The notes beneath the pieces are model-generated. The model did no database searches and was not told the origin of the DNA. It saw nothing but the letters and a program-made list of their open reading frames with translations. Shown here piece by piece: positions 7,981 through 50,223 of a DNA stretch of 64,000 bases. The DNA is from Candidatus Latescibacterota bacterium (GTDB taxonomy: Bacteria > Latescibacterota > UBA2968 > UBA8231): the NCBI GenBank assembly GCA_965206595.1, contig OZ242214.1, forward strand, positions 3,040,001-3,104,000, written 5' to 3'. Position numbers and translations under genes: made by a program. Each line of letters starts with the position of its first letter. The first letter of the stretch is position 1.

Positions 7981-8293
7981 CTCGTACCTCCTTTGGGGTT
8001 TGGGGACGAATGGGCAGACAATGGAAAGTTAATTTACCGATGCCCTGTCACGCTTCCGAGAACTAATTTGCGGACGGCGGGCGGCTGGACTTCCGGCGGT
8101 ACGCCGAGGAGGTGGCCTGGCACGAGGGGGAGGGGGTCGGCTGCGCGCTGGCGGGCGTACGCGCCGATTCTCCTGGCCGGCTATTCGTGCAGGATGGGCT
8201 TGGTCGGCATGTCTTCCATCGCGCTGGCCCTGATTTCCAAGGCCGTGTCGAGCATTGTGTTTAAGGCTTTGGGTGCGTAACACCAAGTTGTAT

Positions 8294-8338
8294 AATGCCC
8301 CCTTTTTCGTACATTGCACGTACGAAAAAGGGGGCATT
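8294..8338. promoter_or_regulatory. Perfect 19-bp inverted repeat (putative operator) upstream of the AAA/DUF4143 gene, overlapping TATAAT
   Basis: aatgccccctttttcgtac-N7-gtacgaaaaagggggcatt; TATAAT at 8291-8296; ATG at 8348. Confidence 0.75.
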
Positions 8339-8347
8339 TTATTCATC

Positions 8348-9724
8348 ATGTATAGATCGGCTGAACGCGCTCTGGCCCAATGGTTTGCCACCCCACAGCG
8401 AAAACCGCTGGTCATCCGCGGTGCTCGCCAAGTGGGTAAATCCACCCTGGTGCGGCAATTCGCCCAGTCCCATCGCCTGCACCCCAACGAAATCAACCTC
8501 GAGCGCCACCCAGACCTGGACCCCGTCTTCCAGACCTTGGACCTGACGCGCATCCGCCGGGAACTCGAAGGGCTGCTGGGTCAACCGCTGTTGGCAGCGG
8601 GCAGCCTGCTCTTCCTCGACGAAATCCAAGCAACCCCACACGCCCTGCCCGCCCTGCGCTATTTCTTCGAAGACCACCCCGAGCTGCCGGTTATCGCCGC
8701 GGGCTCCCTGCTCGAATTCGTCCTCTCGCAACACGCCTTTACCATGCCGGTAGGACGCATTCAATACTTCCACCTAGGCCCGATGAGCTTTGAAGAATTT
8801 CTCGCCGAACTGGACCCGCCCCTCTTGGCCTATCTGCCGGACTACACCCTTGAGCATCCCCTGCCCCATACCGTCCACACCCGCTTGTCGGCCTGTCAGC
8901 GGGAATACTTGCTGGTGGGTGGTATGCCCGAAGCCGTAGCCGCATATAGCTCCACCCGCCGCTTTGCCGACGTGACGCCGGTGCATCAGTCCATCGTCGA
9001 TACCTACCAGGACGATTTTGCCAAGTACTCCTCCGCCCGAGTCCTGCTGCGCCTGCAGCGAGTCTTCAACTACGTTCCCCGGACCGTGGGTCGCAAAGTC
9101 AAATACACCCGGATCGACCGCGAGGAGACCGCCCGCGAACTGCGGGCCGCCATCGACTTGCTGGTCAATTCCCGGGTCATTGCACCCGTCTTCCACAGTA
9201 CCTGTTCCGGGGTGCCTATCCACGCCGATGTCGATTGGAAGACCTACAAACTCCTCTTTTTGGACATCGGCCTGATGAACCGTCTGTGCGGCCTGGACTG
9301 GCTGGCTCTGAAGGACCTGGACGACCGCCAACTGGTCAATGAAGGAGCCTTGGCCGAACAGTTCGTCGGGCAACACTTACTCTACTTGGAAGAGGGTCGG
9401 GAAACGCCCCGTTTGAACTACTGGCTGCGGGAAGGGAAAAGTGCCAACGCCGAAGTTGACTACGCGATTGCCCGGGGGGCTTGGATCGTGCCGGTCGAAG
9501 TCAAAGCCGGCACCAGCGGCACCCTGCGCTCGCTGCATCAGTTCGCCTTGGCCAAAGGGACGCGCCTCGCGGTGCGCTTCGACCTCAATCCGCCCACCGT
9601 CCAGTCCATCCGGCACCAAGTGAGCGGAACGCGGCAGCGCGTGGAAATGACCTTGCTCTCGCTGCCGCTTTACCTGGTGGGGCAACTGGGCCGCCTGCTG
9701 GACCGGCTCAGGCAGGAGCGATAA
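8348..9724 (+). CDS. AAA_14 ATPase + DUF4143 (C-terminal PD-(D/E)xK-like) protein
   Basis: Walker A GARQVGKS, Walker B FLDEIQ, GGMPEAV, EVDY...PVEVK. Confidence 0.9.
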   Translation: MYRSAERALAQWFATPQRKPLVIRGARQVGKSTLVRQFAQSHRLHPNEINLERHPDLDPVFQTLDLTRIRRELEGLLGQPLLAAGSLLFLDEIQATPHALPALRYFFEDHPELPVIAAGSLLEFVLSQHAFTMPVGRIQYFHLGPMSFEEFLAELDPPLLAYLPDYTLEHPLPHTVHTRLSACQREYLLVGGMPEAVAAYSSTRRFADVTPVHQSIVDTYQDDFAKYSSARVLLRLQRVFNYVPRTVGRKVKYTRIDREETARELRAAIDLLVNSRVIAPVFHSTCSGVPIHADVDWKTYKLLFLDIGLMNRLCGLDWLALKDLDDRQLVNEGALAEQFVGQHLLYLEEGRETPRLNYWLREGKSANAEVDYAIARGAWIVPVEVKAGTSGTLRSLHQFALAKGTRLAVRFDLNPPTVQSIRHQVSGTRQRVEMTLLSLPLYLVGQLGRLLDRLRQER

Positions 9725-16127: not shown

Positions 16128-22801
<6,674 letters not shown>

Positions 22802-26276: not shown

Positions 26277-26678
26277 CTACTTGCGCGCGTCGCGCGACAT
26301 CACGTGAGAACAGGTGAGGATGCGGCTGTCCGCGGTTACCACAGTGAGGTCGTGGACTCTCGCCGTGGCGACCAGGATGCGGTCGGCGGGATCCCGATGG
26401 AACTCGCCGGGCAGGTCGTACGCCCCCGCGGCTATCTCGTGGGTAAGGGAAATCGTTTCCGCAAGCAGCGCCTGCAGCGACTCCGAGATCCATGTCTGCA
26501 GCCGCCCCGCCAGAGTCAGCCGCCCCGCCCAGGCGAGCTGGGCGAGTTCCAGCGACGACACCGGGGAAACGAAGAGGCTGTTTTCCTCCGCAGCGAGGGC
26601 ACTCCTCGTACCGGGGCCCAGAGTTTCGGGTGACTCCTGGGTCCAGACCCACACATGGGTATCCAGCAGGAAGTTCAA
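26277..26678 (-). CDS. vapC: VapC/PIN-domain toxin
   Basis: TTG start, LLDTHVWVW, SLELA, HRDPADRILVATA, VTAD. Confidence 0.9.
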   Translation of the reverse strand: MNFLLDTHVWVWTQESPETLGPGTRSALAAEENSLFVSPVSSLELAQLAWAGRLTLAGRLQTWISESLQALLAETISLTHEIAAGAYDLPGEFHRDPADRILVATARVHDLTVVTADSRILTCSHVMSRDARK

Positions 26679-26908
26679 CCTTCCCACTCCCAGTGGTCGG
26701 AGAAGTCGCAGTGGACGATGTCGCCGTGAATGGTCATGCGCCCGCGCAGGCTCCCCAGCTGCCGCTTGCGTGGAGTCTCCCGATAGGGATCGACCGTCGC
26801 GATGGGACGCTTCCGCAAAGTGACGACGAGGGATTCCCCCGTATCGTGAACGGTCTTCAGCTCTTCGATGCACTTCGCCTTGAACTCGGAGATACCCATG
26901 GTCTTCAT
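26675..26908 (-). CDS. Phd/YefM-family antitoxin
   Basis: MKTMGISEFKAKCIEEL...GESLVVT...PIA; 4-nt overlap with the toxin gene. Confidence 0.88.
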   Translation of the reverse strand: MKTMGISEFKAKCIEELKTVHDTGESLVVTLRKRPIATVDPYRETPRKRQLGSLRGRMTIHGDIVHCDFSDHWEWEG

Positions 26909-36414: not shown

Positions 36415-39400
36415 CTACTGCGGCCCCGCATCGCCGAACCGGGTTCGGATGAACTCCCTGGTGTCGTCGGGTGAAAGCTTCACGGTTCCCGGGCCGCTGC
36501 GCACGAAGAAGTCGCCCCCCTCCTCCTTCTCCACCCCCTTCCACCTGAGGAACACCGGTTCCGGGCTGCGCTGGCAGCTCACCACGCAGACCCCCTTGCT
36601 GTCGACGATCTGAATCTCCGGATCGATGCAGGTCCCGGCGCGGTCGCCCAAACCGTTGCGCACCACCTGGGCGAGATGGCGCATGAACTTGTCGTCGTTG
36701 TCGAGCCGGTCCCGTTCGATCCCGACGACGGCTCCATCGTCTGCCACCCCCAATAGGAGATCCCCTCCCTCGGTATTGAGGAAAGCCGCGATGGTTTTCA
36801 GCGCGGCGTGGGTCACGCGCTTGTCGTCCTTGCGGTCCTCCACCAGGTTCCAGCGCAGCGTGGACTTGAACTCCAGGGTCTTCGACTCACCCCTCTTGAT
36901 CAGCTCTTCGGCGCTGCGGTGGCTGTGGAGGTACTGGTCGAAGAGCAGATCCCTGATCACCTCTCCAAAGGCCCGGTCGTCGGTGATCCGCTTGTAGAGA
37001 TCGAAATTGGAATCGACGATCTCCTGGATCACCTGGCTCACCTTGTGATCGAAGGTCAGCCGCACGTTGTCGCGCGTGTTCACCCGCGCCGCGGCGTCGA
37101 GGGCGGGGTCCCCTTCGAGCTTCTCCATCATCTGCCCGAGAGTGACGCGGTGCTCGGGCCCGAGCTCGAGCCCGAAGCGCTCGTTCAGCTCGGCGATGAT
37201 GCGCGAAAGCGTCTCCATCTCTTCCGGCGCATGTCCGTGCGCCTCCTTGGTGCCGATGGGGTCGAGCACCCCTGCCTTGCGTTCGAGACCGATCTTGCCG
37301 CTGCCGGTCTCCTGAATCCGGAAGGATTCCATGTCGATGTTCTGCTGCACTTCGAGCGGCAGCTCGGCCCGCTCCGGGCGCAACAGGCGAAGCAGGTGCC
37401 TGGCGAAGACGTAGAGCTTCTCCAGGTCGGAATCCGAGAAAGGCAGCACCTGGGACAGAAACGCGTAGAGCCGCACGTAGTCGGTGAGCTGCCCCCGGAA
37501 ATCCTGCCGCTCTTCCTCGTGCAGCTCGTTGAAGCGCTCGACGACCGGATTCAGCAGCGGCTGCAGCTGGTCCTGCCCCGCCTTGCCGCCGAAATAGAGC
37601 CTGGCGAAGCCGTCGACGTCGGCCTGAGCATAGACCGGGAAAGCGGTCAGACGCGTCTGGATTTCGTAGAGCAGGTTGGGATCGGTCTCTTCCGAAAGCA
37701 GGGTGGTCTCGTAGTAGGGCTCGAAGGCGGCCTTGATCCCGTCCGGCTCGTTGGCGAAGTCGAGCACCATGGTGCCCTGCTTTCCTTCCTTTGTGCGGTT
37801 GAGCCGCGACAGGGTTTGCACCGCGTTCACGCCGCCGAGCTTCTTGTCGACGTACATCGTGTGCAGCAGCGGCTGGTCGAACCCGGTCTGGAACTTGTTG
37901 GCGACGATCAGGAAGCGGTAGTCCGGCCCTTCGAAGGTTTTGGCAGTCTGCGCCTCTGAGACCTTGTTCATATTGGCTTCGGTATATGCGGGATCACCGC
38001 CATCCTTGACGGACCCGGAGAAGGCAACCAGCGCCTTGAACGGATTCCCCAGCTCCTCGAGATGCCGGTCCACCGCCAGCTTGTAGCGCACCGCGTGCAG
38101 GCGCGAGCGGGTGACGATCATCGCCTTGGCCCTGCCGCCGATCTGGCTCTGCACCTGCCCGGTGAAGTGCTCGATCACGATGCGCACCTTCTCGTCGATG
38201 GCGTGCGGGTGCAGGTCGACATAGGACTTGAGCAGACATGCGGCTTTCTGCTTGTCGTAGCGCGGATCATCCTCAACCGTCTTCAACAGCCGCCAGTAGG
38301 CCTTGCAGGTGGTGTAGCTCTCCAGGACGTCGAGGATGAACCTCTCCTCGATGGCCTGGCGCATGCTGTAGAGGTGGAACGGCGCGAACGAGCCGTCGGG
38401 TCGCTTCGTTCCGAACAGCTCCAGCGTCTTGGGCTTGGGCGTCGCCGTGAAGGCGAAGGTCGACAGATTGGGCAGCCGCCCGCGCTTTTCCATCTCCGCA
38501 AGGATCGCGTTCTCCAGCTCCTCTTCTGGGGTCTCGGCCCCGGATTCCTCGCTCTCGGCCTCTTCGAGCGAAGCTGGGGCCAGCACCGACTTCAGGCTCT
38601 TCGTGCTCTCCCCCGACTGCGACGAGTGCGCCTCGTCTACGATCAGCGCGAACCGCTTGCCCGGCAGATCGTCGATCTGTCCGGCGATCACCGGGAACTT
38701 CTGCAGCGTGGTGACGATGATGGTCTTGCCCCCCTCGAGGGCATCCCTGAGCTGGCGCGAGGTGGTGTCGATGTTCTCCACCACCCCCAGGGTCTGCTCG
38801 AACTGGCGCATGGTGCTCTGCAGGGCGCGGTCGAGCACGCGGCGGTCGGTGATGACCACGATCGAGTCGAAGACGCGGCGGTCGTCAGCGTCGTGCAGGG
38901 TCGAGAGCTGGTGGGCGAGCCAGGCGATGGTATAGCTCTTGCCGCTCCCGGCCGAGTGCTGGATGAGATACTGCTGCCCACCCCGTTCTCGCGGGCATCG
39001 GCGACGAGCCGGCGCACGCAGTCGAGCTGCTGGTAGCGCGGGAAGATCAGGGATTTCCTGCCGGTCTTGCGGCCGGTCTCGTCCTCTTCTTCGACTTCAT
39101 GGATGAACTGGCGCACCAGGTCGAGGACGCTGTCGCGCGCCCAGGTCTCTTCCCAGAGATAGGAGGTGGCGTACCCGGTCTGCGTGGGCGGCACCGGCGG
39201 GTTGCCGGCGCCTCCGAACTTGCCCCGATTGAAAGGGAGGAAGCGGGTCCCGGCGCCGTCGAGATGGGTGGCGACGTAGACCAGGTCGGCGTCCACGGCG
39301 AAGTGTCCGAGGCAGCGGCCGTATGCCAGCAGCGGCTCGCGGGGATCGCGGTCGGTCCGGTACTGGCGGATCGCGTCCTCGACGGTCTGGCCGCTGAGCG

Positions 39401-39947
39401 GGTTCTTGAGCTCCGCGGTGAACAGGGGGATACCGTTCAGGAACAGCACCAGGTCGAGGCTCTTCTCGTTTTTGAGGCTGTAGCGGACCTGGCGGACAAC
39501 GGCGAAGAAGTTCGCCGCGTGCAGCCGCCGCGTCTCCTCGTTGAGCCCGCTGGCCGGGGCGAAATAGACGAGCCGGAAGCTGCAGCCCATGTCCTTCACC
39601 CCGGAGCGCAGCACGTCGAGGGCGCCGCGTCTCGCGATCTCCGACGACAACCGTTTGAGGAACCGCTCCTGCACCTGGACCCCGTAGTGTTCGGACAGCC
39701 TCTGCCACTGCTTCGGCTGCGTAGCCAGCAGGAAGTCCACGACGTCGCGGGGCAACAGGCACAAGGTTCGGTCGTAGTCCCGGGGCAGGCGCTGGTGATA
39801 GCCGCCGGGCTGCATCCCCCGGGCGCCCAGGGAAGGCGTGGGTTCCCCCGCCAGGGCTTCGCCCCCGGGCAGCTCCCCCTCGACCCGGCGCAGCAAGGCC
39901 GCCTCGATGGCGTCCTCGAAGGCTCGTTCCGAGATCTCGGGATTCAC
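36415..39947 (-). pseudogene. hsdR: Type I restriction subunit HsdR with C-terminal Schlafen/AlbA_2 domain; frameshift near 38978
   Basis: DLVLFLNGIP...ELKN...QY nuclease; adding one base restores QQYLIQHSAGSGKS; DEAH, FTATP, QTLSRLNR; C-terminal ESKTLEFKS...AFLNTEGGDLLLGVADDG. Confidence 0.88.
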
Positions 39948-41125
39948 ATGCCACCTCCCCGGGTTGTCGCGGCTTCAGGGTCCCGTCTCGGGGTGGACGG
40001 GGCATCCAGCACCTCTAGCACGGCGGGCGCGCAATAAATCCGATTGCGCTTCGCCTCCCCGACCAGGGTGACGATGCCTGCCGCTTCCAGCCGGTCGACG
40101 GCGCGCCGGGCCGTGGTGTAGGCGACCTCCAGATTCTGGGCAAGGCCGCGTACGGACCAGAAGGGATTCTCGACAAACAGCTCCAGCACCTTCTCCGACT
40201 GCCCGGAATGAACCCCGTCGATTTTCTCCAACCAGCCCTGAAACAGGTCGTCGATGCGTTGGATCCGGCCGACTGCGTCTCCTGCCTGGAGTTCCACCCC
40301 GCGCAGGAAGTACGTCAACCACGCCTCCCACTCCCCGCTTTCCGTCACCCCCTGAAGGCGGGCGTAGTACTCCTCGCGCGTCGCTTCAAAGTAAGCGCTC
40401 AGATAGAGAAGGGGTTCCGGCAGGAGTCCGCGGGCGACGAACAACAGCGAGATGAGCAGGCGACCGACGCGCCCATTGCCGTCGATAAACGGATGGATCG
40501 CCTCGAACTGCGAGTGGACGAGCGCGGCGTGCACCAGGGGAGGCAGGGTGCCGTCGTGAAGGAACTGCTCCCACGCCCCCAGGCAGGCCATCAGCTCGCC
40601 GGGCGGAGGGGGAACGTACCTGGCGTCCTCGAGGCCGCTCCCGGGCGGACCGATCCAGTTCTGGGTGCGTCGAAACTCACCCGGGGTAGCCGTGTCGCCC
40701 CGGACCCCCCGCATCAGACGCTCGTGCAGCTCCCGCACCAGACGCAGGGACAGCGGCAACGTGTTCAGGCGCCTTATCCCGTACTGCAGCGCCAGGACGT
40801 AGTTGGCGACCTCGTGCAGATCCGCTGCATTCCGTTCGACCCCTGCCCCAGCCTGCGCTGCAAGCAGTTCGCCCAGGGTGGCCTGCGTGCCTTCGATGCG
40901 GCTGGAAAGCACCGCTTCCCGGTGGAGGAAGGCCCGGATGAAGAGATGCGGATTGGACACCAGTCTGCCTTCCCCGGCGAGCCGGCCTACCGCCTGGTCG
41001 GCGCGGGAGAGCGCGAGGAGGAGGTCTCCATTCCAAGCAATAGGAAGCGGAAGGGGCGCCGGAACGAAGGCGCGGTACCCGCCCGGGCAGTCGATCAGGC
41101 GACCGGGCTGTGGTTTTGCATCCAT
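39944..41125 (-). CDS. Fic-family protein (class II, autoinhibited) with C-terminal HTH
   Basis: HPFIDGNGRVGR active motif; SSRIEG inhibitory motif; 4-nt overlap with the hsdR start. Confidence 0.92.
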   Translation of the reverse strand: MDAKPQPGRLIDCPGGYRAFVPAPLPLPIAWNGDLLLALSRADQAVGRLAGEGRLVSNPHLFIRAFLHREAVLSSRIEGTQATLGELLAAQAGAGVERNAADLHEVANYVLALQYGIRRLNTLPLSLRLVRELHERLMRGVRGDTATPGEFRRTQNWIGPPGSGLEDARYVPPPPGELMACLGAWEQFLHDGTLPPLVHAALVHSQFEAIHPFIDGNGRVGRLLISLLFVARGLLPEPLLYLSAYFEATREEYYARLQGVTESGEWEAWLTYFLRGVELQAGDAVGRIQRIDDLFQGWLEKIDGVHSGQSEKVLELFVENPFWSVRGLAQNLEVAYTTARRAVDRLEAAGIVTLVGEAKRNRIYCAPAVLEVLDAPSTPRRDPEAATTRGGGM

Positions 41126-41144
41126 GCCGATGTTACCGCATTCC

Positions 41145-41207
41145 CTGTTTTCGGGTGCGAAAACAGAAACGGGTTTTATTAGCGCAAATTGCGAATCGCG
41201 CTAATAA
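41145..41207. promoter_or_regulatory. Two inverted repeats upstream of fic
   Basis: ctgttttcg-N4-cgaaaacag (41145-41166) and ttattagcgc-N12-gcgctaataa (41176-41207). Confidence 0.7.
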
Positions 41208-41420
41208 CCTAACGGCGGAGGGTAAATGAGGGAAATACCGGTGTTTTTTAGTTGACCCGAAGAAGGAGGACGAGTGACCTCACTTCCCGGTACCGTATCA
41301 GTCTGAAAATTCCATCCGCCCCGGAAAGCCGATTCCATCACCCAGGTTTCCTGGCTAAAGGGTGTGCTGTTTCGCCGCCAATAGTCGCTCTTGGTGGGAG
41401 GTTGATCCACCCCCATCCGC

Positions 41421-41439
41421 GTTATACATGTTGTATAAC
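41421..41439 (+). promoter_or_regulatory. Palindromic operator upstream of the RelE-type TA pair
   Basis: gttataca-tgt-tgtataac, followed by RBS AAGGAGG and ATG at 41465. Confidence 0.7.
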
Positions 41440-41464
41440 ATCCCACACCAAGGAGGTAGGAATC

Positions 41465-41650
41465 ATGTCCACAGCCAATGGCATCCCTCGGGAGAAGGAC
41501 GAAACAATCGAGTTGCAAAAGATACTCGACGATCCTTCCACGGAGTGGGTGTCCTGGAAGGAAGCAGAAGATGAGCTACGAGAGCTCGATAAACAGGAAA
41601 GCCTTGAAAAGGCTGAAGCAAATCCCCCAGCCCACGAGAGGGCGCATTGA
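41465..41650 (+). CDS. Putative small acidic antitoxin
   Basis: Strong RBS; acidic; ...EWVSWKEAEDEL typical of RelB-like C-termini; precedes relE but overlaps it by an atypical 80 nt. Confidence 0.6.
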   Translation: MSTANGIPREKDETIELQKILDDPSTEWVSWKEAEDELRELDKQESLEKAEANPPAHERAH

Positions 41651-41821
41651 AGAGGCCATCAGGGCCATTGAGAAAAATCCTCGTGCTGGCGAAGCCTTAC
41701 GAGGGATTGAATTGGATTTCGAAAGATCAGGATTGGCCAGTTCCGGGTTCTCTACGAAGTGAATGAATCTGAGAAGCTGATCCGAATTGTGAAAATAGAA
41801 CCGCGAGGCTCTTCCTACTGA
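41571..41821 (+). pseudogene. RelE/ParE-family toxin with frameshift near 41705
   Basis: MSY...KALKRLKQI...RIEEAI..IEKNPRAGEALRG, then in shifted frame GFRKIRIGQFRVLYEV...IVKIEPRGSSY*. Confidence 0.8.
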
Positions 41822-42045
41822 TAGTCGTCTTCTTCGCTCACCCTCTTAGGTCAAATTTTTTCCCAAGTACATCTCCTCTGAACTCGGCTCTTTTCGAGAG
41901 ATCGGGTTTATTTTTTTGCCAGTTCGTCAAATTATCCAAACCAAATCACTGACACATATGCTTGCCATTTTCGTTCTGAATTCGTTGATGTTATCTGAAC
42001 AAATTGCAGATTCAGTTGGAAAACGGAGAAGTTTGTAACATTTTG

Positions 42046-43512
42046 TTACGAACTAGAACTTTTGCAAAACTTCTTCGTAACGGCCGGAGTGAACGTGACA
42101 TATGCGGCAGCCTGCCGCACGTCGATCTTGCCGGTTACTGCAGCCGAGATGAGGGCCGTGCGGAGTTCCTTGTGGCAGTCGATGGCCTCGCGGACTTTGG
42201 CGACGAGGGCGTCGATCTTGGCGGTCTCGCGGTCGAGGAAGGCGGCGATGGCGTGTTGTTCCTCTATAGAGGGTAATGCCAATCTGACATTGCCAATTTC
42301 GTTCGTACTTACGTTGAACTGAGCAGTACCCGTTGTATATGAAAGAACTTGCTCGTAGAAAACCGTTGTCTGTAAGGCTCCAACAAGGAATCCGTCTGTG
42401 ATTCGGTCGATCACGGGCCGGAATCTAGCAACGCGTTGGTTCAGTTGCGCAGGGGTGTCACCTTTCCGGACAACAGCAAAGTTACCAAGGCTACCCGTGG
42501 AACCGATGCTTCCAGACAATCCGTAAATTATGTCATCTTCGTTAAGTGCAAACTCGTCTTTGCATTCATGTTCAGGTATTCGAACTACATTTTCAAAGTC
42601 TAATGCTCCCCGGCGGATGTTGTTCATGCGAATTATTGGGACCCCATCGTTCTGGAATGAATCAGAGGAAAAAGCAAACCCCCCTTGGACCCGAGACGCT
42701 TGCTTCAACCGAACAACCTCCCAATGCACAGGTATCGCCCCCAGCCACTCGACACCGGAGTCCTTCATCGGCACATCGGGGTCGAGGCCCTTGGTGACGG
42801 CGCGGTTGATGAGGGCAGTGCGCTTTTCCTGGAGCAGCTCGATCAGCCGCTCCTTCTTTGCCACGAGGGCGTCGATCCTGGCCGTCTCGCGGTCGAGAAA
42901 AACGGCGATGGCGCGTTGTTCCAGTAACTCCGGATAGGCTGCGACTTCATTCAGATAATTCTCACTATCTAAATTTTGTATTCCTGTATTCTGTTTTATA
43001 GAACGTGTATTTATGCGGGCGGAATACATCGCGGCGTGCACGTAGGTCAAGTATCGAGGATCGAAGCCCTCTTGCACGGGCATCTGCGCGATGAAATTTG
43101 AACAGATAGCAAGTTCGCCATAGGTGTTTATTACCACTGCCCCAACGGGTTGATTGTCCCCTCCTCCTGATTTCTCCAAAAGAAGATCGTTACGTCTAAG
43201 GCGTCGTCCACCCAAAATCATTGGGTCCACTGAACGGAGGGTAGGCTGGTTCATTTTGACTACGCCTGCCACCCGATCAAAATCCGCAACCCGGACACAT
43301 GCAACATCATTGATACCGTCAGGATCATCCCCCCACAATCCATTCTGACACTTAGTCACGGTAAATCGCAGTCTCTTCACCTCCCAGTGCTCCGGAACCT
43401 GCCCCAGCCACTCGACACCGGAGTCCTTGGAGGCCGGATAAGGCCTGTATCGTTCCCCCCCCATTCTGGGTGTACCACTGCTCTTCCCAATGTCAGCGGA
43501 TCGTTTAGTCAT
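42046..43512 (-). CDS. hsdS: Type I R-M specificity subunit HsdS
   Basis: Two KDSGVEWLG..P.HWEV repeats, two EQ.AIA.FLDRETA.ID.L repeats, ALISAAVTGKIDV; AT-richer TRDs. Confidence 0.93.
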   Translation of the reverse strand: MTKRSADIGKSSGTPRMGGERYRPYPASKDSGVEWLGQVPEHWEVKRLRFTVTKCQNGLWGDDPDGINDVACVRVADFDRVAGVVKMNQPTLRSVDPMILGGRRLRRNDLLLEKSGGGDNQPVGAVVINTYGELAICSNFIAQMPVQEGFDPRYLTYVHAAMYSARINTRSIKQNTGIQNLDSENYLNEVAAYPELLEQRAIAVFLDRETARIDALVAKKERLIELLQEKRTALINRAVTKGLDPDVPMKDSGVEWLGAIPVHWEVVRLKQASRVQGGFAFSSDSFQNDGVPIIRMNNIRRGALDFENVVRIPEHECKDEFALNEDDIIYGLSGSIGSTGSLGNFAVVRKGDTPAQLNQRVARFRPVIDRITDGFLVGALQTTVFYEQVLSYTTGTAQFNVSTNEIGNVRLALPSIEEQHAIAAFLDRETAKIDALVAKVREAIDCHKELRTALISAAVTGKIDVRQAAAYVTFTPAVTKKFCKSSSS

Positions 43513-43542: not shown

Positions 43543-44472
43543 TCATCGTCCAACTTCATTCCACCAAGGCCCACCTGCCGGCCAGGTTCCGGTGAACCCT
43601 GATCCGCGCGCCATCGCATCCCATGGCTCTCTGAGAAACGACAGTAGGCGCTCGCCTACGATACCGAAATCCGATTGCGCCCCCGGAAGCTCGTTCCTGT
43701 CCAGGTAATTACCCCACTGCTCCGCCCGCTCGGCATCCTCATAGAACCGAGGCGTCAGAGCCACCGGAACATCCCGGGAAATCACAGTACGGCGTTGGTC
43801 GAAGGTTGCGCCCACAGCGCGTTCGAGGTTCTCACCCTCGAAGGAAGAGCACTGTGCAAGCGCGTGAAGATCGTAAAAATCTTTGTAGCGACTGTTCCGT
43901 TCGCCGAGCACAACCATCGCGTGGAGCTTCTCGGCCACGACGGCTTCGCGTGGGTAAACACGGATTTGCGGATGAGGAGCGTCGAGCAGTGTCGGGTAAT
44001 CGGCGTTGGTCGGCGGAGGCTGGATGGCATTCCCGAACCCGACATCGATCCGCATCCGTATTCGCGCGCCCGAGATCCTGGCCCAGAAGAACGCTCGGAA
44101 GCCGTCATACTCTTGATGTTCCCGGAAGGGTTCGACCCCGATGTCCCCGCTGTCGAAAACAACTCCATCGTCGGCGGGAGTGTCGCAAATGTCGCGGATG
44201 GTGGAGCGCACCTCGTTTGCCAGGGGGCTTCCGTAGCCAGTGAAATCCAGATCGCGCGTCGGCCGATAGACTGCTTCGCTCCAAAGGCAAAGGAGCATCG
44301 CGCCCTTCAAGACGTAGCGCTCGCGGTGCTGCGATTCTCCAAGGCGGTAGAGGAATCGCTCCGCGGCGTAGCGCTGCAGCAGGAACTGGAAGTCCTCTCC
44401 GGTTGCGCGGCTCCGGTTCATCAACCTTGCGCGAACCGATGCTCCCATGTTTCGGCGTTTCCCGCGCGTCAT
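43543..44472 (-). CDS. abiEii: AbiEii-type nucleotidyltransferase toxin (type IV TA)
   Basis: ERFLYRL, LKGAML, RPTRDLD, IDVGFG, AEKLHA, NSRYKDFYDL. Confidence 0.9.
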   Translation of the reverse strand: MTRGKRRNMGASVRARLMNRSRATGEDFQFLLQRYAAERFLYRLGESQHRERYVLKGAMLLCLWSEAVYRPTRDLDFTGYGSPLANEVRSTIRDICDTPADDGVVFDSGDIGVEPFREHQEYDGFRAFFWARISGARIRMRIDVGFGNAIQPPPTNADYPTLLDAPHPQIRVYPREAVVAEKLHAMVVLGERNSRYKDFYDLHALAQCSSFEGENLERAVGATFDQRRTVISRDVPVALTPRFYEDAERAEQWGNYLDRNELPGAQSDFGIVGERLLSFLREPWDAMARGSGFTGTWPAGGPWWNEVGR

Positions 44473-45074
44473 AGCGAGAGTGCTTGCAGGTAGGCACGCA
44501 TGACGGTCTGCGCACGGCAGACTTCGGCGGCGCGCACGATCTCATCCACGGTCGCAGCCCGTGATCGCAGGGCGTCGTGCAGTGCCTCGAGCGCGATGTC
44601 GAGACCGAGCTTGTGGCGGTAGCGAAAACAGTCCACCACGGTGCGGGCCGGCGAGGTGATGCGAAACGGCACCCCCTGCGCCGAATGGGAGGCAACGCCG
44701 TAGGTGAGCATCGCACCGGAGAAACGGACGATGCGCACACGCGAGGGTGGGTGCGCCGGCTTGCGGGCCTTGCGGTCGAGGGCGATCCAGACCTCGTGCG
44801 GCGACTGCGTGCCGATTTCGTGGAAGCGAAGCGCCGTCAGCAGGCAGATGACCGCGTTCGGGATGGCCGCGGCTACCATCGCGATCGTCTCGACCTCCGT
44901 GGGTTCGACCTCGGAGAGTCGGTATAGGCCGTTTCCCTGGTTCTCGACGAGTCCCCTGGTAACCAGACCCTGAAGCCTGCGGTGGGAAACCCCGAGCGGC
45001 GCGATGTCCCGAGGCCGGAAGTAGGCTCCGAGGCCGGCTTCCTGGAGTTCGGCAGTGTCCACTATATTCGCCAT
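44469..45074 (-). CDS. abiEi: AbiEi antitoxin / wHTH regulator
   Basis: GLYRL wHTH, ICLLTALRFH, TSPARTVVDCFRYR; ATGA overlap with abiEii. Confidence 0.9.
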   Translation of the reverse strand: MANIVDTAELQEAGLGAYFRPRDIAPLGVSHRRLQGLVTRGLVENQGNGLYRLSEVEPTEVETIAMVAAAIPNAVICLLTALRFHEIGTQSPHEVWIALDRKARKPAHPPSRVRIVRFSGAMLTYGVASHSAQGVPFRITSPARTVVDCFRYRHKLGLDIALEALHDALRSRAATVDEIVRAAEVCRAQTVMRAYLQALSL

Positions 45075-45091
45075 ACCTACAGATGATACTG

Positions 45092-45123
45092 AATGTCGGC
45101 ACTTAATCGCAACTGCCGACATT
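45092..45123 (-). promoter_or_regulatory. Inverted-repeat operator over the abiE promoter
   Basis: aatgtcggca-N12-tgccgacatt; minus-strand TTGCGA-N18-TATCAT; AbiEi proteins are known to autorepress via inverted repeats. Confidence 0.75.
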
Positions 45124-45157: not shown

Positions 45158-45754
45158 TCATAGCCTCCTCAATCGGTTCAGGAGATCCTTGGCATGCGGA
45201 CACGAGGATTCGACGAGTGTTGGATCGATTTGCGCAAGCAATCCGAATGAAGCCTTGCCCTTGGCATAAGGTTTTGGGCATTGGGCGGTGGCCCTGTCCA
45301 GCGCGGCGAGAACCGTCTCCCTGGACAGGTCTTCCAACTTTGGCCATTGCCTGAGCGCGTTCTCCGCAACCAACGGACCGAAGTAGCGTCGCAGTGCATC
45401 ATGGTCCGCCAGAAACCAGGTTTCCATGACCTGAACCATCAGGAAGGCCTGATCGTCGCCGGTCCCTGAAGGTCTATTCCAGCCGTCGCGTTGCTGCAGA
45501 TGCTGCCAAGCCGAGTGGCCCGCTGCGACCGGGTCTTCGCTGTCCACGAGGAGCAGTGGGATGGTACCAGGCTTCTGCCCAGCGGCATCTGTCGCAAAGC
45601 GGTTGAAGGTGTCTTGCCGTGTGCCGCCCCGAACTACTCTCGGCATGCGGCCACGCAGCCCTGCCGCTGTGAAGAAACTGGTCCAGCCCTCGCGGAATTG
45701 CGCGCCAAGCCGCCGATTATCCCCGCCCCCCTCGATGTAAAGCACGGCGGTCAC
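45158..45754 (-). CDS. DUF4276-like TOPRIM-fold protein
   Basis: LYIEGGGD, LLVDSED, MVQVMETWFLAD, YAKG; GTGA overlap with the ATPase gene. Confidence 0.8.
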   Translation of the reverse strand: MTAVLYIEGGGDNRRLGAQFREGWTSFFTAAGLRGRMPRVVRGGTRQDTFNRFATDAAGQKPGTIPLLLVDSEDPVAAGHSAWQHLQQRDGWNRPSGTGDDQAFLMVQVMETWFLADHDALRRYFGPLVAENALRQWPKLEDLSRETVLAALDRATAQCPKPYAKGKASFGLLAQIDPTLVESSCPHAKDLLNRLRRL

Positions 45755-46968
45755 CAACGATTCCCTCCCAGTTGCCCGGAGCTCCAGAGATTGCCGAGGG
45801 TGTAATCCTTCAGCCACTTTGCCAGGTCCTCCTTGTCGAGCCGTCGCATTTCGGTCCGCCCCTCGTGCTTTTCGCAGATCACGACACTTTCCGGGGTGTC
45901 GGTCAGCGCATCGACCATGACATCCGAATGCGTCGTCACGATCAGTTGACTGCGCTCGGACGCTGAGCGCAGCAGCTCGACCAACGTCGGCAACAGGTCC
46001 GGGTGCAGGCCCAGTTCCGGCTCTTCGATTACGACAAGGGGCGGGGGCTCGGGGTGCAACAGGATGGCGAGCATGCAGAGGTAGCGCAGGGTGCCGTCCG
46101 AAAGGCCAGCGACCGGGATTTCACGGTTGCCACTTTCCTCCAAAAACAGGGTAACGGTACCGCCGACCACCGAGCATTTGATGTCGACGATTCCGTCGTA
46201 GAGCTTCTGCAATGCTGATATGAGCTGCCTCCTGTTCTCACCAGGAAAGTTCGACAGCACGGGCGCCAGGTTCGCCCCTCTCTCATCGAGGTAGTCAGCA
46301 GCGTCGTGAGCGCTCGCCGGCCGACGCAAATTCGCCGAAGGTCCGAACGACCAATCCCGGTAAAGACGAATGGCGTTGTACCGTTGGTTCAAAAACCAAA
46401 GGGCTGGGTAGTCCTTGGGATTGGCGACGGATACCAACGAGACTTTGGGTAAATAATCACTCCTGAAGTGGATACCGTCGTCCTCACGTAAATGCGCCAA
46501 AAGGCTACCTGCGGAGTTCGGGTCAGTTGGATTTGGAGATTTCTCACGCAGAAATGACTCGGTACGAGCCTCTCGAGGGGGCCGGAAATAAACCCAAGCG
46601 GCACGCTTATCCTCGCACTCCCCAACTGGCTGGACCTGCTCGGAAATAACTTCCGGGCGACCGTTCACCTCCCCCAGCGAGAAGAAATGCCGCAACTCGC
46701 CGCCCCATGGATAGTGAAGCATGGCCTCCATGGTCATCGACTCCGGCGGCCTTGGCCCCTTCCATAGCGACTCTCGAAGGCCACCCCTGGGTGAGAGGGG
46801 CTCGAAGACATCTCGGGGGATCGCCTTGAGCAACGAAATCGCCTCGATGAAGTTCGACTTCCCCGAACCGTTCGGGCCGATCAGGACGTTCAGCGGTTCC
46901 ATGGGCAAGTCGATCCCGTCGGGTCCGAACGACAGAAAGCCTGCGACTTTCAATCTGTGAATCAGCAT
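45751..46968 (-). CDS. AAA_21/ABC-type ATPase
   Basis: GPNGSGKS, LSDGT signature, VIEEPE, HP, TTHS. Confidence 0.9.
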   Translation of the reverse strand: MLIHRLKVAGFLSFGPDGIDLPMEPLNVLIGPNGSGKSNFIEAISLLKAIPRDVFEPLSPRGGLRESLWKGPRPPESMTMEAMLHYPWGGELRHFFSLGEVNGRPEVISEQVQPVGECEDKRAAWVYFRPPREARTESFLREKSPNPTDPNSAGSLLAHLREDDGIHFRSDYLPKVSLVSVANPKDYPALWFLNQRYNAIRLYRDWSFGPSANLRRPASAHDAADYLDERGANLAPVLSNFPGENRRQLISALQKLYDGIVDIKCSVVGGTVTLFLEESGNREIPVAGLSDGTLRYLCMLAILLHPEPPPLVVIEEPELGLHPDLLPTLVELLRSASERSQLIVTTHSDVMVDALTDTPESVVICEKHEGRTEMRRLDKEDLAKWLKDYTLGNLWSSGQLGGNRW

Positions 46969-46998: not shown

Positions 46999-49146
46999 TT
47001 ATCCGGCCGACACGCCCTTCAGCATCTCCAGGATGTCCTTCTCGATAACCTGAATGTCCGCCTCGATCTCCGCGAGCGGCCGTGGCGGCTTGTACTGATA
47101 GAAGTAGCGGTTGAAGTTGATCTCGTAGCCGACCATGCCAACCAGGCCGTCTCTTGGGTCCCGCTTCGACGTGTCGATCCAGGCATCCGGCACATGCGGC
47201 TCGACCTCGCGCTCGAAGAAAGCGCGGACGCTTTCCGGCACCCCATCCTCTCCGGCGGGATCCTCTCCATCGGTCAGGGGCACACGCTCGGTATCACGCA
47301 GCTCCGGGTCGGGTTCAAGAGCGCCGTCCTTGCCGCGGCAGATTGCCGCGGTTTCGTCCCGCTCTGAAAGGGCATCGAGTATCGCTGTTTTGAGCGGAGC
47401 CGGAAGCTTCATGCCGGCTTTCGCGGCCGCTTTGGCAAGCTCCGCATGGAACGCCTCTCGGTCCTTGCGGAGGGTGTCGGGCAGGGTCTGGAGCATGGCC
47501 AGAACGGCGTCCTGCAGGGCGCGGCCTTCCTCCTCTTCCCTGGCGCCGGCCTCCCCGCGCTTCTTGGATCTGGCCAGGTTCTGGAAGCCCTTCTGCTCGC
47601 CGAGGCGGGCGATCCGTTCGGCGCTCGCCTGGAAATTGAGCCGCAGCGGCCGTTCGACGGTGATCTTCCGGTACCCGAACTGCGCCGCCGAGAAGACGCG
47701 GCTGACGACGGTCTCTTCCTCTTCTCCGTCCTTTGAGAGTTTCCGGGTCTCGCCGTCTCGGAAACCGGCGAGGAGGTCGAGCACATCGGCCGCGTTTTCC
47801 GGGGGTATCTGGCGCCGCTTGTCGCCGAGGCTCCGGCGCATCGGCGCCCAGAACCCGGTGGCGTCGATGAGTTGCACCTTACCCCTGCGTGCCGCGGCCT
47901 TGCGGTTGCTCAGCAGCCACACGTAGGTGGCGATGCCGGTGTTGTAGAAAAGTTGCTCCGGCAGCGCGATCAGCGCCTCCAGCAGGTCGTTCTCGAGGAT
48001 GTGGCGGCGGATCTCGCTCTCACCGCTGCCGGCGTCGCCGGTGAACAGGGGCGAGCCGTTCATGATGATGGCGATGCGGGCGCCCCCGTCGTCCGCTGCC
48101 CTGGCATGGGCGAGCATGTGCACCAGGAACAGGGTCTGGCCGTCGCTTATGCGCGGCAGCCCGGGGCCGAAACGGCCGGACGCCCCCCGCTCGTGCTCGG
48201 CCTCGACCGCAGCCTTGTCCCGCTTCCAGTCCTTGCCGTAGGGGGGATTGGCGATCAGGTAGTCGAAGGTCCGGCCGGCGTGGCGGTCGTTGGAGAGGGT
48301 GCTTCCGAAAGCCACTTTCTCCGCGTCGCGGCCCGACGGGTCCTTCATGAAGATGTCGGACTTGGAGACCGCCCAGGTCTCCGGGTTCACTTCCTGGCCG
48401 AAGAGATGGATCTCCGCCTGCGCGTTGATGGCGGGGCGAACCAGTTGGCCGTTGCTGCTCATGCCGCCGGTGATGTGCTCCTTGGCGATCATCAGCATGC
48501 CGCCCGAACCGCAGCAGGGATCGTAGACCGAGCGCACCACTCCGGGGCCGGCGATCTCCTTTTCGTCGCCGGAAAGCATGAGGTCCACCATCAGATGGAC
48601 GACGTCGCGGGGCGTGAAGTGCTCGCCGGGGTTTTCGTCCAGGGCCTCGTTGAAGCGGCGGATCAGCTCCTCGAAGATCGTCCCCATGACCGGGTTGTCG
48701 ATCGCGTCCGGATGCAGATCGACGCTCCCGAACCGCTCCAGCACCTGGAACAGCAGCCCTGCCTCGTCGAGCTTGCTTATCGTGTTGTCGAAATCGAACC
48801 GCTCCAGCACCTCGCGCATGTTTCCGCTGAAACCGGCGATGTAGTTCCTGAGGTTGGCGGCGAGGTTCGGCGCGTCGGCGAGGAGCTTGTCGAAGTCGTA
48901 GCGGGAGGTGTTGTAGAAACTGAAGCCGGATGTTCCACAGAGCTGGTCGTTGAGGTCTTCGAGGCCCCGCTCGGACAGCTCGGCCTGCCGTTGCAGCACC
49001 TTCTCCTTGGTCGGTGCGAGCACGCAGTCGAGACGGCGCAGCACGGTCAGCGGCAGGATGACATCCTGGTACTTGCCGCGCTTGAAGCTGTCGCGGATCA
49101 GGTCCGCGACCCCCCAGAGAAAGCTGACGATTTCGCTGTGGTTCAT
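46999..49146 (-). CDS. hsdM: Type I R-M methyltransferase HsdM
   Basis: VILPLTVLRRLD, GEHFTPR, YDPCCGSGGML, GQE, NPPY, FYNTGI, GYEINFNRYFY. Confidence 0.95.
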   Translation of the reverse strand: MNHSEIVSFLWGVADLIRDSFKRGKYQDVILPLTVLRRLDCVLAPTKEKVLQRQAELSERGLEDLNDQLCGTSGFSFYNTSRYDFDKLLADAPNLAANLRNYIAGFSGNMREVLERFDFDNTISKLDEAGLLFQVLERFGSVDLHPDAIDNPVMGTIFEELIRRFNEALDENPGEHFTPRDVVHLMVDLMLSGDEKEIAGPGVVRSVYDPCCGSGGMLMIAKEHITGGMSSNGQLVRPAINAQAEIHLFGQEVNPETWAVSKSDIFMKDPSGRDAEKVAFGSTLSNDRHAGRTFDYLIANPPYGKDWKRDKAAVEAEHERGASGRFGPGLPRISDGQTLFLVHMLAHARAADDGGARIAIIMNGSPLFTGDAGSGESEIRRHILENDLLEALIALPEQLFYNTGIATYVWLLSNRKAAARRGKVQLIDATGFWAPMRRSLGDKRRQIPPENAADVLDLLAGFRDGETRKLSKDGEEEETVVSRVFSAAQFGYRKITVERPLRLNFQASAERIARLGEQKGFQNLARSKKRGEAGAREEEEGRALQDAVLAMLQTLPDTLRKDREAFHAELAKAAAKAGMKLPAPLKTAILDALSERDETAAICRGKDGALEPDPELRDTERVPLTDGEDPAGEDGVPESVRAFFEREVEPHVPDAWIDTSKRDPRDGLVGMVGYEINFNRYFYQYKPPRPLAEIEADIQVIEKDILEMLKGVSAG

Positions 49147-49191
49147 AGGAACCTTCCAAGTACCGGAAATTACCAATTAGGTCAGAGTTAT

Positions 49192-50223
49192 CTATTCAAA
49201 AACCAATCCTTTTGTCCCAGCGATTGAGTCAATCGCATCCGCCATTTCTTCTGATATCGAAAAGGCAGTTTGCCTAAAGCGATGACCGGAATTACATCTT
49301 CCATTGATCTCCCATGCCTTTGGGGCTGTTTGGTCCCACAGGGTTTCGTCCGGCAGGGCCCATCGAAATTTTAATGGAACATAATATTCCTCATCCTTGT
49401 CATCACCATAATCAGTTGTCCCATATTCGGAGAGAGCAATTCCACTAGCAATAACTCCCACTCCCGTGTGATACAGATATACTCGATCATCTTTGGAAAT
49501 TGAGCCCACAGAATTTTTCCTGACATAATAGGCAGAAGCTTTACCATCCGTGCCGTCCTTCAACATATCTTTCCAAGCGTCGGGCATGTAGGTTTTGTTA
49601 GTATTTACTACATAAAAATTTGTTTTTTGCTCGAAAATCACTTCATTTTTAGGATTGTAGGTATCAAACTGGATATAGGGAATTCCATCTATATCGTAAA
49701 TACGATAAGGAGAACATTGAACCTTGACTCCCTTATCGGACCAGAATTGGATTGCGGAAATAGTATCTCCATCGACGCCATTCGTGACTAAGACAAATTT
49801 CTGGTCTTTATTGAATTCAGATTCATCCAATTCTTTAGGAAGACTGAAATAGTCACAGTGCTCTTTTTTCAAAGGACCCTTCAGTTTTTGCCGCTGGGCA
49901 TAAGCCTCAAGCTCCTTATATGTATATCTTCCAAAAATTTGACCATATCTCATCACCTGAAGGATATTTTCGTGACTAGATTCCCATCTTTTCAATTCAA
50001 AAATGTAAAGTAATCCATCTTTATCGAGCGCGAGAAGATCGGGTTCCTCTTGCCCCTGTCGTTCCTGGCCAATTAGCATGAGTTGATCTTCGGAGACAAC
50101 TTCCTCAAGGCGGGATTTCAGGAAATCTTCGATGTGTTTCTCTTTCAGATGGAGATCCGCAGGCGTTCTGATCTCGATCCTTTCACTCGATTCGATTTTT
50201 TCAGCATTAATTCTATAAAGCAT
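49192..50223 (-). CDS. AT-rich PD-(D/E)xK (NucS/Mrr-like) nuclease with putative C-terminal EVE/PUA-like domain
   Basis: E...IGQE...PDLLALD...FELKR...QVMRY; C-terminal FYVVNTN...W...DDRVYLYHTGVGVIASG. Confidence 0.7.
   Translation of the reverse strand: MLYRINAEKIESSERIEIRTPADLHLKEKHIEDFLKSRLEEVVSEDQLMLIGQERQGQEEPDLLALDKDGLLYIFELKRWESSHENILQVMRYGQIFGRYTYKELEAYAQRQKLKGPLKKEHCDYFSLPKELDESEFNKDQKFVLVTNGVDGDTISAIQFWSDKGVKVQCSPYRIYDIDGIPYIQFDTYNPKNEVIFEQKTNFYVVNTNKTYMPDAWKDMLKDGTDGKASAYYVRKNSVGSISKDDRVYLYHTGVGVIASGIALSEYGTTDYGDDKDEEYYVPLKFRWALPDETLWDQTAPKAWEINGRCNSGHRFRQTAFSISEEMADAIDSIAGTKGLVFE

Follow-up and report, generated by a model that had tools for sequence, protein, structure and literature searches.

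The stretch of DNA considered here, called the window below, comprises 64,000 nucleotides of contig OZ242214.1 (positions 3,040,001 to 3,104,000, forward strand) in assembly GCA_965206595.1 of a Candidatus Latescibacterota bacterium. Its minus strand carries the operon of a type I restriction-modification (R-M) system in which further defence genes are interspersed. The last gene of this operon is hsdR, which is divided between two reading frames. The C-terminal ~168 residues of the encoded HsdR, from minus-strand positions 36415-36920, are the element in question. They contain a domain of the Schlafen/AlbA_2 family.

A Schlafen/AlbA_2 domain at the end of HsdR

The protein that carries the tail is an HsdR, with an N-terminal nuclease, superfamily 2 (SF2) motor motifs, a C-terminal helical domain and a place in an operon with hsdM and hsdS. 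Pfam detects HSDR_N, SWI2_SNF2, ResIII and a T1R_D3-like domain, the alignment shows GSGKS and DEAH, and PADLOC assigns the protein to REase_I. The N-terminal open reading frame covers 38688-39947 (-), and its GTG start at 39947 overlaps the stop codon of the preceding Fic gene (GTGA). The second frame (36415-38859, minus strand, with its stop codon at 36415-36417) translates to 814 aa, of which an NCBIfam hsdR subfamily model covers aa 1-384. TIGR00348 stays below its cut-off for either half of the gene.

The tail of this protein is a genuine Schlafen/AlbA_2 domain with an E-x4-E-x-K motif, borne by a type I HsdR in a defence operon. The helical domain of HsdR ends with ...AEELIKR just ahead of it. 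Pfam-A places PF04326 (SLFN_AlbA_2) on aa 658-795 of the 814-aa frame (36475-36888) with 65.6 bits against a cut-off of 25.3 (E 7.7e-18), spanning profile positions 1-117 of 118, and a genome-wide scan recovers the identical site in hsdR at 69.8 bits. Motifs of the domain include ESKTLEFKS at aa 658-666, IAAFLNTEGGDLLLGVADDG at aa 690-709 and FFVRSG at aa 784-789. A first-pass annotation, made by a model from the sequence, had read ESKTLEFKS and FFVRSG at the end of HsdR as an AlbA_2 signature; translation and the PF04326 match confirm this, and the profile search and structure prediction that it named as checks both came out in its favour.

The predicted structure agrees with the family assignment. 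The AlphaFold2 (AF2) model of the tail is a confident AlbA_2 fold, with a predicted local distance difference test (pLDDT) of 93.5 and a predicted template modelling score (pTM) of 0.87, and in it the helices continue directly into the AlbA_2 domain with a linker that is nearly nil. At E <= 1e-3, Foldseek returns AlbA_2/Schlafen structures exclusively: 3lmm, SLFN13 (5yd0), the DNA-binding/tRNase domain of SAMD9 (7ksp/9o0d), 2kyy, and SLFN14, SLFN11, SLFN12 and SLFN5. The probability is 1.00 for 3lmm, 5yd0, 7ksp, 9o0d and 2kyy, with template modelling scores over the query (TMq) of 0.41-0.59. A profile of 44 relatives also matches the chains of SLFN12 (E 1.7e-6), SLFN14, SLFN11, an SLFN13-type protein and SLFN5, the E values for the first four lying between 1.7e-6 and 1e-5. 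In that alignment EsktlEFK stands opposite ESTHVEIK/ESTHVEFK of SLFN12/14, and AAFLNTdGG opposite SAFANTdGG.

The putative catalytic residues, assigned from sequence and profile alignment, are E658, E663 and K665 of the E-x4-E-x-K motif and a downstream Asp, D707 (numbering of the 814-aa frame). In the alignment of 44 sequences, which are diverse relatives with 38-79% identity to the AlbA_2 domain of the window, the second Glu is invariant, and conservation is at least 90% for the first Glu, for the Lys and for the Asp of GVADDG; the earlier remark that both Glu of E-x4-E-F-K are retained holds for E658 and E663 and for their columns. All four residues (E, E, K and D) occur in 79 of the 80 genome loci compared (the best 80 of 385 relatives). 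Among the metagenome loci, 60 have a domain match; 57 of them show the four residues, and the other 3 are partial matches. Of 145 full-length proteins, 143 retain E..E.K.

Distribution of the fusion and modularity of the tail

The HsdR-Schlafen fusion is widespread and already annotated in databases, and the HsdR considered here belongs to a large, highly conserved clade with a single-lobe Schlafen/AlbA_2 domain. The first-pass annotation had treated the fusion as something unusual, a view that does not survive the searches. A protein search with the tail only gave 1,859 clusters at E <= 1e-3 among 2,719 candidates, and in a search of a single genome from each species, 477 candidate stretches included 385, from many phyla, that encode a relative. 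The 120 listed matches of the tail search are 79-94% identical to it and all have PF04326; 77 of them are 1116-1206 aa long with the full HsdR domain set. They are named "type I restriction enzyme R subunit", "RNA-binding domain-containing protein" or "putative DNA binding domain-containing protein". All of the best 80 among the 385 relatives include the tail. They belong to Latescibacterota, Binatia, Acidobacteriota, Gemmatimonadota, Methylomirabilota, Nitrospirota, Planctomycetota, Chloroflexi, Spirochaetota, Proteobacteria and cyanobacteria, the last represented among others by Microcystis elabens FACHB-917 and a strain of Cyanobium. A single frame of at least 1100 aa extends through the tail in 61 of the 78 loci that hold AAFLNT-GG; where the frame is shorter, a contig end is mostly the cause.

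The same tail subfamily is found on other proteins as well. An exhaustive search with the tail gave 6,229 representatives at E <= 1e-3, 213 of them at E <= 1e-30. At 40-50% identity it forms the C-terminus of an RNase HIII (P0289), a PLD-like protein, a TPR protein, Eco57I/MmeI-type R-M enzymes, GmrSD_N (DUF262) proteins and a BrxL-like protein. At the same level of identity, a family of proteins of ~430 aa (P0258, P0264, P0268, P0280 and P0283) ends in this tail, and their 270-aa N-terminal domain has no Pfam or NCBIfam match. The recurring partners of the tail are enzymes that recognise or process DNA. In the 7.05-Mb genome to which the window belongs there are 16 AlbA_2 reading frames, 15 of them outside the window (L087-L101): 10 occur with HATPase_c_4, one is a GmrSD_N(DUF262)-AlbA_2 protein (L095), one is AlbA_2-NB-ARC-TPR (L101), 3 are short or unannotated, and one is the HsdR.

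One fusion of 1329 aa (P0282) has an extra S24 (LexA-like) peptidase after the AlbA_2 tail. Without AlbA_2, S24 is likewise attached to DUF3387-type HsdR, Eco57I-type enzymes and DUF1998 helicases, and such appendages hint at control of restriction enzymes by self-cleavage.

On HsdR the tail behaves as a module. In a search with the HsdR core, 11 of the best 120 HsdR matches have no PF04326, and 8 of these, 1016-1027 aa long, have cores 80-84% identical to the window protein. They end at ...AEELIK(L/P) or a few residues away, 1-2 residues ahead of G-ESKTLEFK, so the AlbA_2 domain is a clean add-on at a domain boundary. This agrees with the first reading of the frame as running on past the normal HsdR C-terminus, and the comparison of HsdR proteins with and without the domain that was suggested with it does find tailless forms. 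In a tree built from 54 HsdR cores after the tail had been trimmed off, the tailless forms are nested within the tailed ones; of the 137 tailed proteins that remained, the tree includes a random sample of 40, supplemented by 9 named proteins where these were absent. The tree needs 4 changes, and at least 3 are forced by well-supported branches. Such clean and repeated removal among relatives shows that the tail is dispensable for HsdR. Where it is present, it is as conserved as the motor and does not evolve faster.

The DNase motif of HsdR (D...ELK, QxxxY) is conserved in the tailed forms. With this canonical PD-(D/E)xK nuclease kept, the Schlafen domain is an addition and not a substitute. 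A more distant HsdR clade, 62-68% identical and known from metagenome loci, also has no tail; of the 20 metagenome loci without a domain match, 3 stop at a contig edge and most of the others belong to this clade. The flanks of these 20 loci contain no stand-alone AlbA_2 gene of the same subfamily, a search that did not include the tight tailless clade (P0141-like).

The operon and its surroundings

The genes of the operon follow one another on the minus strand in the order hsdM, HEC-01, AbiE, hsdS, SoFic and hsdR (Table 1). With the type III R-M pair, the PDC-S01 gene and the PIN-domain gene, the window is a defence island. The arrangement at hsdR is that of the prokaryotic Schlafen (pSlfn) type, a Schlafen domain fused to a putative sensor, here HsdR, among defence genes.

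Table 1. Features of the window, with positions counted from its first nucleotide.
Feature	Position	Strand	Evidence or remark
Schlafen/AlbA_2 domain, HsdR C-terminal, aa 657-814 and stop	36415..36891	-	Pfam envelope 36475-36888; AF2; Foldseek
HsdR motor and C-terminal helical region, downstream frame	36892..38976	-	SWI2_SNF2, T1R_D3-like, Walker A QQYLIQHSAGSGKS, DEAH box IVDEAHSSQ
Frameshift site	38977..38979	-	G3 here, G4 in closest relative L009
HsdR N-terminal part, upstream frame	38980..39947	-	HSDR_N, PD-(D/E)xK: D...ELK, QxxxY
hsdR, two frames	36415..39947	-	REase_I
Fic_N + Fic + winged helix-turn-helix (wHTH), between hsdS and hsdR	39944..41125	-	full-length PADLOC SoFic match, 382 bits
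hsdS, two internal conserved repeats	42046..43512	-	Specificity_I 398 bits
AbiEi (44469-45122) and AbiEii (43543-44472)	43543..45122	-	within operon, between hsdM and hsdS
HEC-01 A/B pair: AAA_21 ATPase (45751-46968) and DUF4276 (45158-45817)	45158..46968	-	PADLOC
hsdM (HsdM_N + N6_Mtase)	46999..49176	-	PADLOC MTase_I 869 bits
PDC-S11-like gene, just upstream of hsdM	49192-50223	-	family match
Type III R-M pair	16128-22801	-	REase_III 718 bits, MTase_III 635 bits
PDC-S01 gene (AAA_14/DUF4143)	8255-9724	+	family match
PIN-domain gene	26277-26873	-	family match

Several of these genes recur at related loci. AbiEii was found in 10 of the 15 related loci examined (L007, L009, L012, L013, L015, L025, L027, L028, L061 and L069); that of L028 is interrupted, and at some loci the open reading frame call merges AbiEii with hsdS. 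L009 and L028 have the HEC-01 pair too, and a Fic gene occupies the equivalent position in L010. Other inserts ahead of hsdR are an M78 peptidase and DUF4411 pair (L010, L061, L083) and an Mrr_cat gene (L010). Between hsdS and the Fic gene, 0.9 kb of sequence (41126-42045) contains only short open reading frames (41201-41518 on the minus and 41252-41650 on the plus strand) with no family match. No target-site duplication was found around the operon, the notable repeats being those internal to hsdS. A reading of hsdR and its downstream neighbour as a two-gene effector/antidote pair was rejected, the genes downstream of hsdR being mutually unrelated across 15 loci.

Possible roles of the tail

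Work published since 2026 describes bacterial Schlafen domains as defence effectors that cut tRNA and that are frequently tied to restriction systems. According to Taboada et al. 2026 (PMC13056530), pSlfn proteins with Ex4(E/D)xK are phage-activated tRNases fused to sensors, catalogued in the supplement in 55 domain compositions; E. coli is protected by DUF262-Slfn and Ig-like-Slfn, the former defending alone. The text of the Cash paper (PMC13462974) ties Schlafen clusters to restriction-modification, including methyltransferase fusions, and speculates that such proteins sense DNA cleavage products, as SLFN11 senses single-stranded DNA. According to the text of the SLFN-pAgo preprint (10.64898/2026.05.29.728809), single-lobe bacterial Schlafen domains pair to rebuild a two-lobed nuclease, and a Schlafen-ATPase module (Schlatpase) is fused to HsdS. 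In a survey of BREX systems (PMC12839542), Schlafen RNases are called "backup suicidal effectors". An HsdR-Schlafen fusion is not named in the main texts of PMC13056530, PMC13462974 and 10.64898/2026.05.29.728809, where "hsdr" occurs 0 times (their supplements may list one), and "restriction" is found once in the main text of PMC13056530, in the name of PARIS. Literature searches likewise gave no paper that describes one in its listing or in the text inspected. The fusion is a widespread variant of an established theme of bacterial Schlafen effectors and, to the extent that the literature is searchable, is not discussed there.

The likeness to the pSlfn proteins, for example DUF262-Slfn EcoSlfn7 and Ig-like-Slfn RorSlfn5, lies in PF04326, the Ex4(E/D)xK motif, the fusion of domains and the location in a defence island; a DUF262/GmrSD_N-AlbA_2 protein of the tail's own subfamily was found in the searches and in the same genome (L095). 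Here, in contrast, the Schlafen domain is joined to an entire type I restriction motor, whose own DNase is retained and which acts within R2M2S1. With the R-M-linked Schlafens, as far as they are described in the texts of PMC13462974 and 10.64898/2026.05.29.728809, the fusion shares the recruitment of a Schlafen module to restriction-modification proteins. There the module is on a methyltransferase, a specificity subunit or neighbouring genes, often with a GHKL ATPase, whereas here a bare AlbA_2 domain sits on the R subunit.

The preferred reading is that the tail is a latent RNase that would give the restriction complex a second, RNA-cutting output and so stop translation. We regard this reading, taken as a whole, as evenly poised between right and wrong, and we rank it above a guard of the PrrC kind and above a pure binding role, both considered below. 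By analogy with the characterised bacterial Schlafens the tail would most probably be a tRNase. A lone Schlafen lobe would need a second lobe for a working two-lobed nuclease, and the likeliest switch would be the pairing of two HsdR tails as motors act on unmodified foreign DNA and engage it, stall or run into each other. Activation on foreign DNA is favoured because a single lobe needs a partner and because the other partners of the subfamily are DNA sensors with nothing to guard. The near absence of a linker in the AF2 model suggests rigid coupling to the C-terminal helical domain of HsdR.

Activation coupled to restriction in this manner would be analogous to that of human SLFN11, whose tRNase is switched on by the binding of single-stranded DNA to the helicase domain (cited in PMC13056530 and PMC13462974), so that a DNA-sensing helicase domain licenses a tRNase. 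The fusion and SLFN11 (also SLFN13/14) are alike in having a Schlafen nuclease and a helicase-like NTPase on one polypeptide, with motifs that align. The mammalian core, however, has two lobes in one chain and a C-terminal helicase unrelated to HsdR, whereas the single lobe here is C-terminal on an SF2 translocase, with 15-21% identity and a TM score of ~0.4 over the query. The more specific proposal is that the mechanical state of the type I motor licenses the tail as a tRNase, the tails pairing only on stall or collision on unmodified DNA or if an anti-restriction protein locks up the complex; it is put forward tentatively and, as a whole, is somewhat doubtful.

A number of observations weigh against the reading as an RNase effector. 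The trigger of activation is one that we infer. In a Nitrospiraceae metagenome-assembled genome (L041:11885-12433), GASKTLAFTS replaces GESKTLEFKS, so that both Glu and the Lys are changed in a tail that is otherwise open and 72% identical, in effect a natural catalytic knock-out that keeps the fold. The first Glu is absent in two proteins (P0157 and P0174), and with L041 these variants indicate that the fold may also serve a non-catalytic role. The motif is conserved over most of PF04326, including the abundant AlbA_2-ATPase-HTH proteins of unproven function, and its conservation is by itself no proof of RNase activity. Public annotation describes the fusion proteins as RNA-binding or DNA-binding.

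Much of this is what would be expected of a nucleic-acid-binding module that cuts nothing and tunes the loading of HsdR, its translocation, collisions or the alleviation of restriction. One of the best structural matches, 7ksp, is the SAMD9 DNA-binding domain on DNA, the NCBI names point the same way, L041 retains the entire domain despite replacement of the three motif residues, and the tail is conserved like the motor. Against such a module stands the retention of E, E, K and D in nearly all loci, and of E..E.K in nearly all full-length proteins, which binding alone hardly explains. The bacterial Schlafens tested in the papers considered here are all nucleases, and at least 3 clean losses among close relatives fit a costly effector more than an integral part of DNA handling. 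A purely binding role is judged improbable.

The first-pass annotation had proposed a guard comparable to PrrC, with the tail silent in the working complex and firing as a tRNase when a phage anti-restriction protein blocks it. The blocker might be a DNA mimic (Ocr or ArdA) or a Stp-like peptide, and infection would be aborted. There is real precedent, in that prrC lies inside the type IC EcoprrI locus and guards EcoprrI, the trigger being T4 Stp with dTTP (text of PMC12707154). In both arrangements a type I restriction enzyme is physically associated with a tRNA-directed nuclease (here putative), in keeping with the logic of abortive infection; in contrast to PrrC, with its known trigger of Stp and dTTP, the nuclease here is Schlafen-type and covalently fused. 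PrrC stands as a protein by itself and its fold differs, combining an ABC-ATPase-like N-domain with a nuclease domain of its own. HsdR has no homology to PrrC/RloC: neither family is among its Pfam, NCBIfam and PADLOC matches, and the Pfam and NCBIfam scans gave no ABC-ATPase or HEPN-type match. Conservation of the putative catalytic residues speaks for a guard, and the tail sits on the C-terminal helical domain, a good position for reading the state of the core if that domain contacts it. In EcoR124I the helical domain does contact the methyltransferase core.

No feature of the sequence, however, points to the sensing of an inhibitor. The same AlbA_2 subfamily occurs on stand-alone DNA-sensing enzymes (GmrSD_N/DUF262, Eco57I-type, RNase HIII) that have no partner to guard, which leans slightly against pure guard logic, and DUF262-Slfn defends alone in the text of PMC13056530. 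The guard, including the blockers suggested for it, is an analogy and an unlikely account of the tail.

The preferred reading of the tail as an RNase effector meets a further difficulty at this locus, where hsdR has no uninterrupted frame: aa 1 to ~324 are encoded in 38977-39947 and the remainder in 36415 to ~38979. The first-pass annotation had spoken of a "repaired locus", and the gene is indeed split over two frames, with the break at 38977-38979. It falls directly after ...ARENGVG, where relatives go on with QQYLIQHSAGSGKS, found here in the downstream frame; the sequence at the break is GTGGGCAG in the window and GTGGGGCAG in L009, so that one G of a four-G run has been lost. The Walker A motif is in frame with the upstream part in 75 of the 76 related loci that have it. 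L009, a Latescibacterota metagenome-assembled genome and the closest relative, has in its hsdR (L009:8911-12454) a frameshift near aa 157-205 and an out-of-frame stretch in mid-gene with three stops. The gene is broken there in at least 3 places beside neighbouring operon genes that are apparently whole; this points either to decay of hsdR in the lineage or to indel errors in these assemblies. Together, the frameshift here and the broken hsdR of L009 mean that the local copy may be dead.

If the loss is real, the copy in the window would be a locally inert pseudogene, with only HsdM and HsdS acting (in methylation) and the tail not made, independently of what the domain does in the family. This is a serious possibility, which we place just short of an even chance. 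It is in keeping with the clean break between two frames, the G3 against G4 in L009 and the state of the L009 gene, and among the window genes with a Pfam match no other looks split. On the other hand, an indel in a homopolymer is a classic assembly error, and, the break aside, the two parts of the gene show no stops or further shifts and share 91% and 93% identity with an intact orthologue of 1175 aa. Among short contigs of complex metagenomes, no public contig with an exact match bridges the break (38964-39132); the sole contig that crosses it is a related one with 10 mismatches, in which an extra base behind 38976 restores the frame. The loss of one base may be either a real mutation or an assembly error, and a Schlafen-tailed protein would be made here only if it is an assembly error or is read through.

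With the copy in the window broken, its local value is low. If the tail is an active tRNase, the type I enzymes of this clade, known from hundreds of species ranging from Acidobacteriota to cyanobacteria, would possess a second defence layer of their own, linking DNA restriction to translation arrest. Intact orthologues are present in cultured strains, candidates being the loci in Microcystis elabens FACHB-917 (L083), Cyanobium sp. (L061) and Gemmatimonas (L069), and natural controls are at hand in the clean tail deletions and in the variant with Glu, Glu and Lys all replaced. Should the tail prove to be a tRNase licensed by the motor, one enzyme would both cut invading DNA and shut down translation, a bacterial counterpart of the coupling of DNA-sensing helicase and tRNase in SLFN11 and a single-polypeptide version of the PrrC-EcoprrI idea. 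An active tail would also make the family a simple bacterial model for the control of a Schlafen nuclease by a helicase-like motor, a question that human SLFN11 raises as well.

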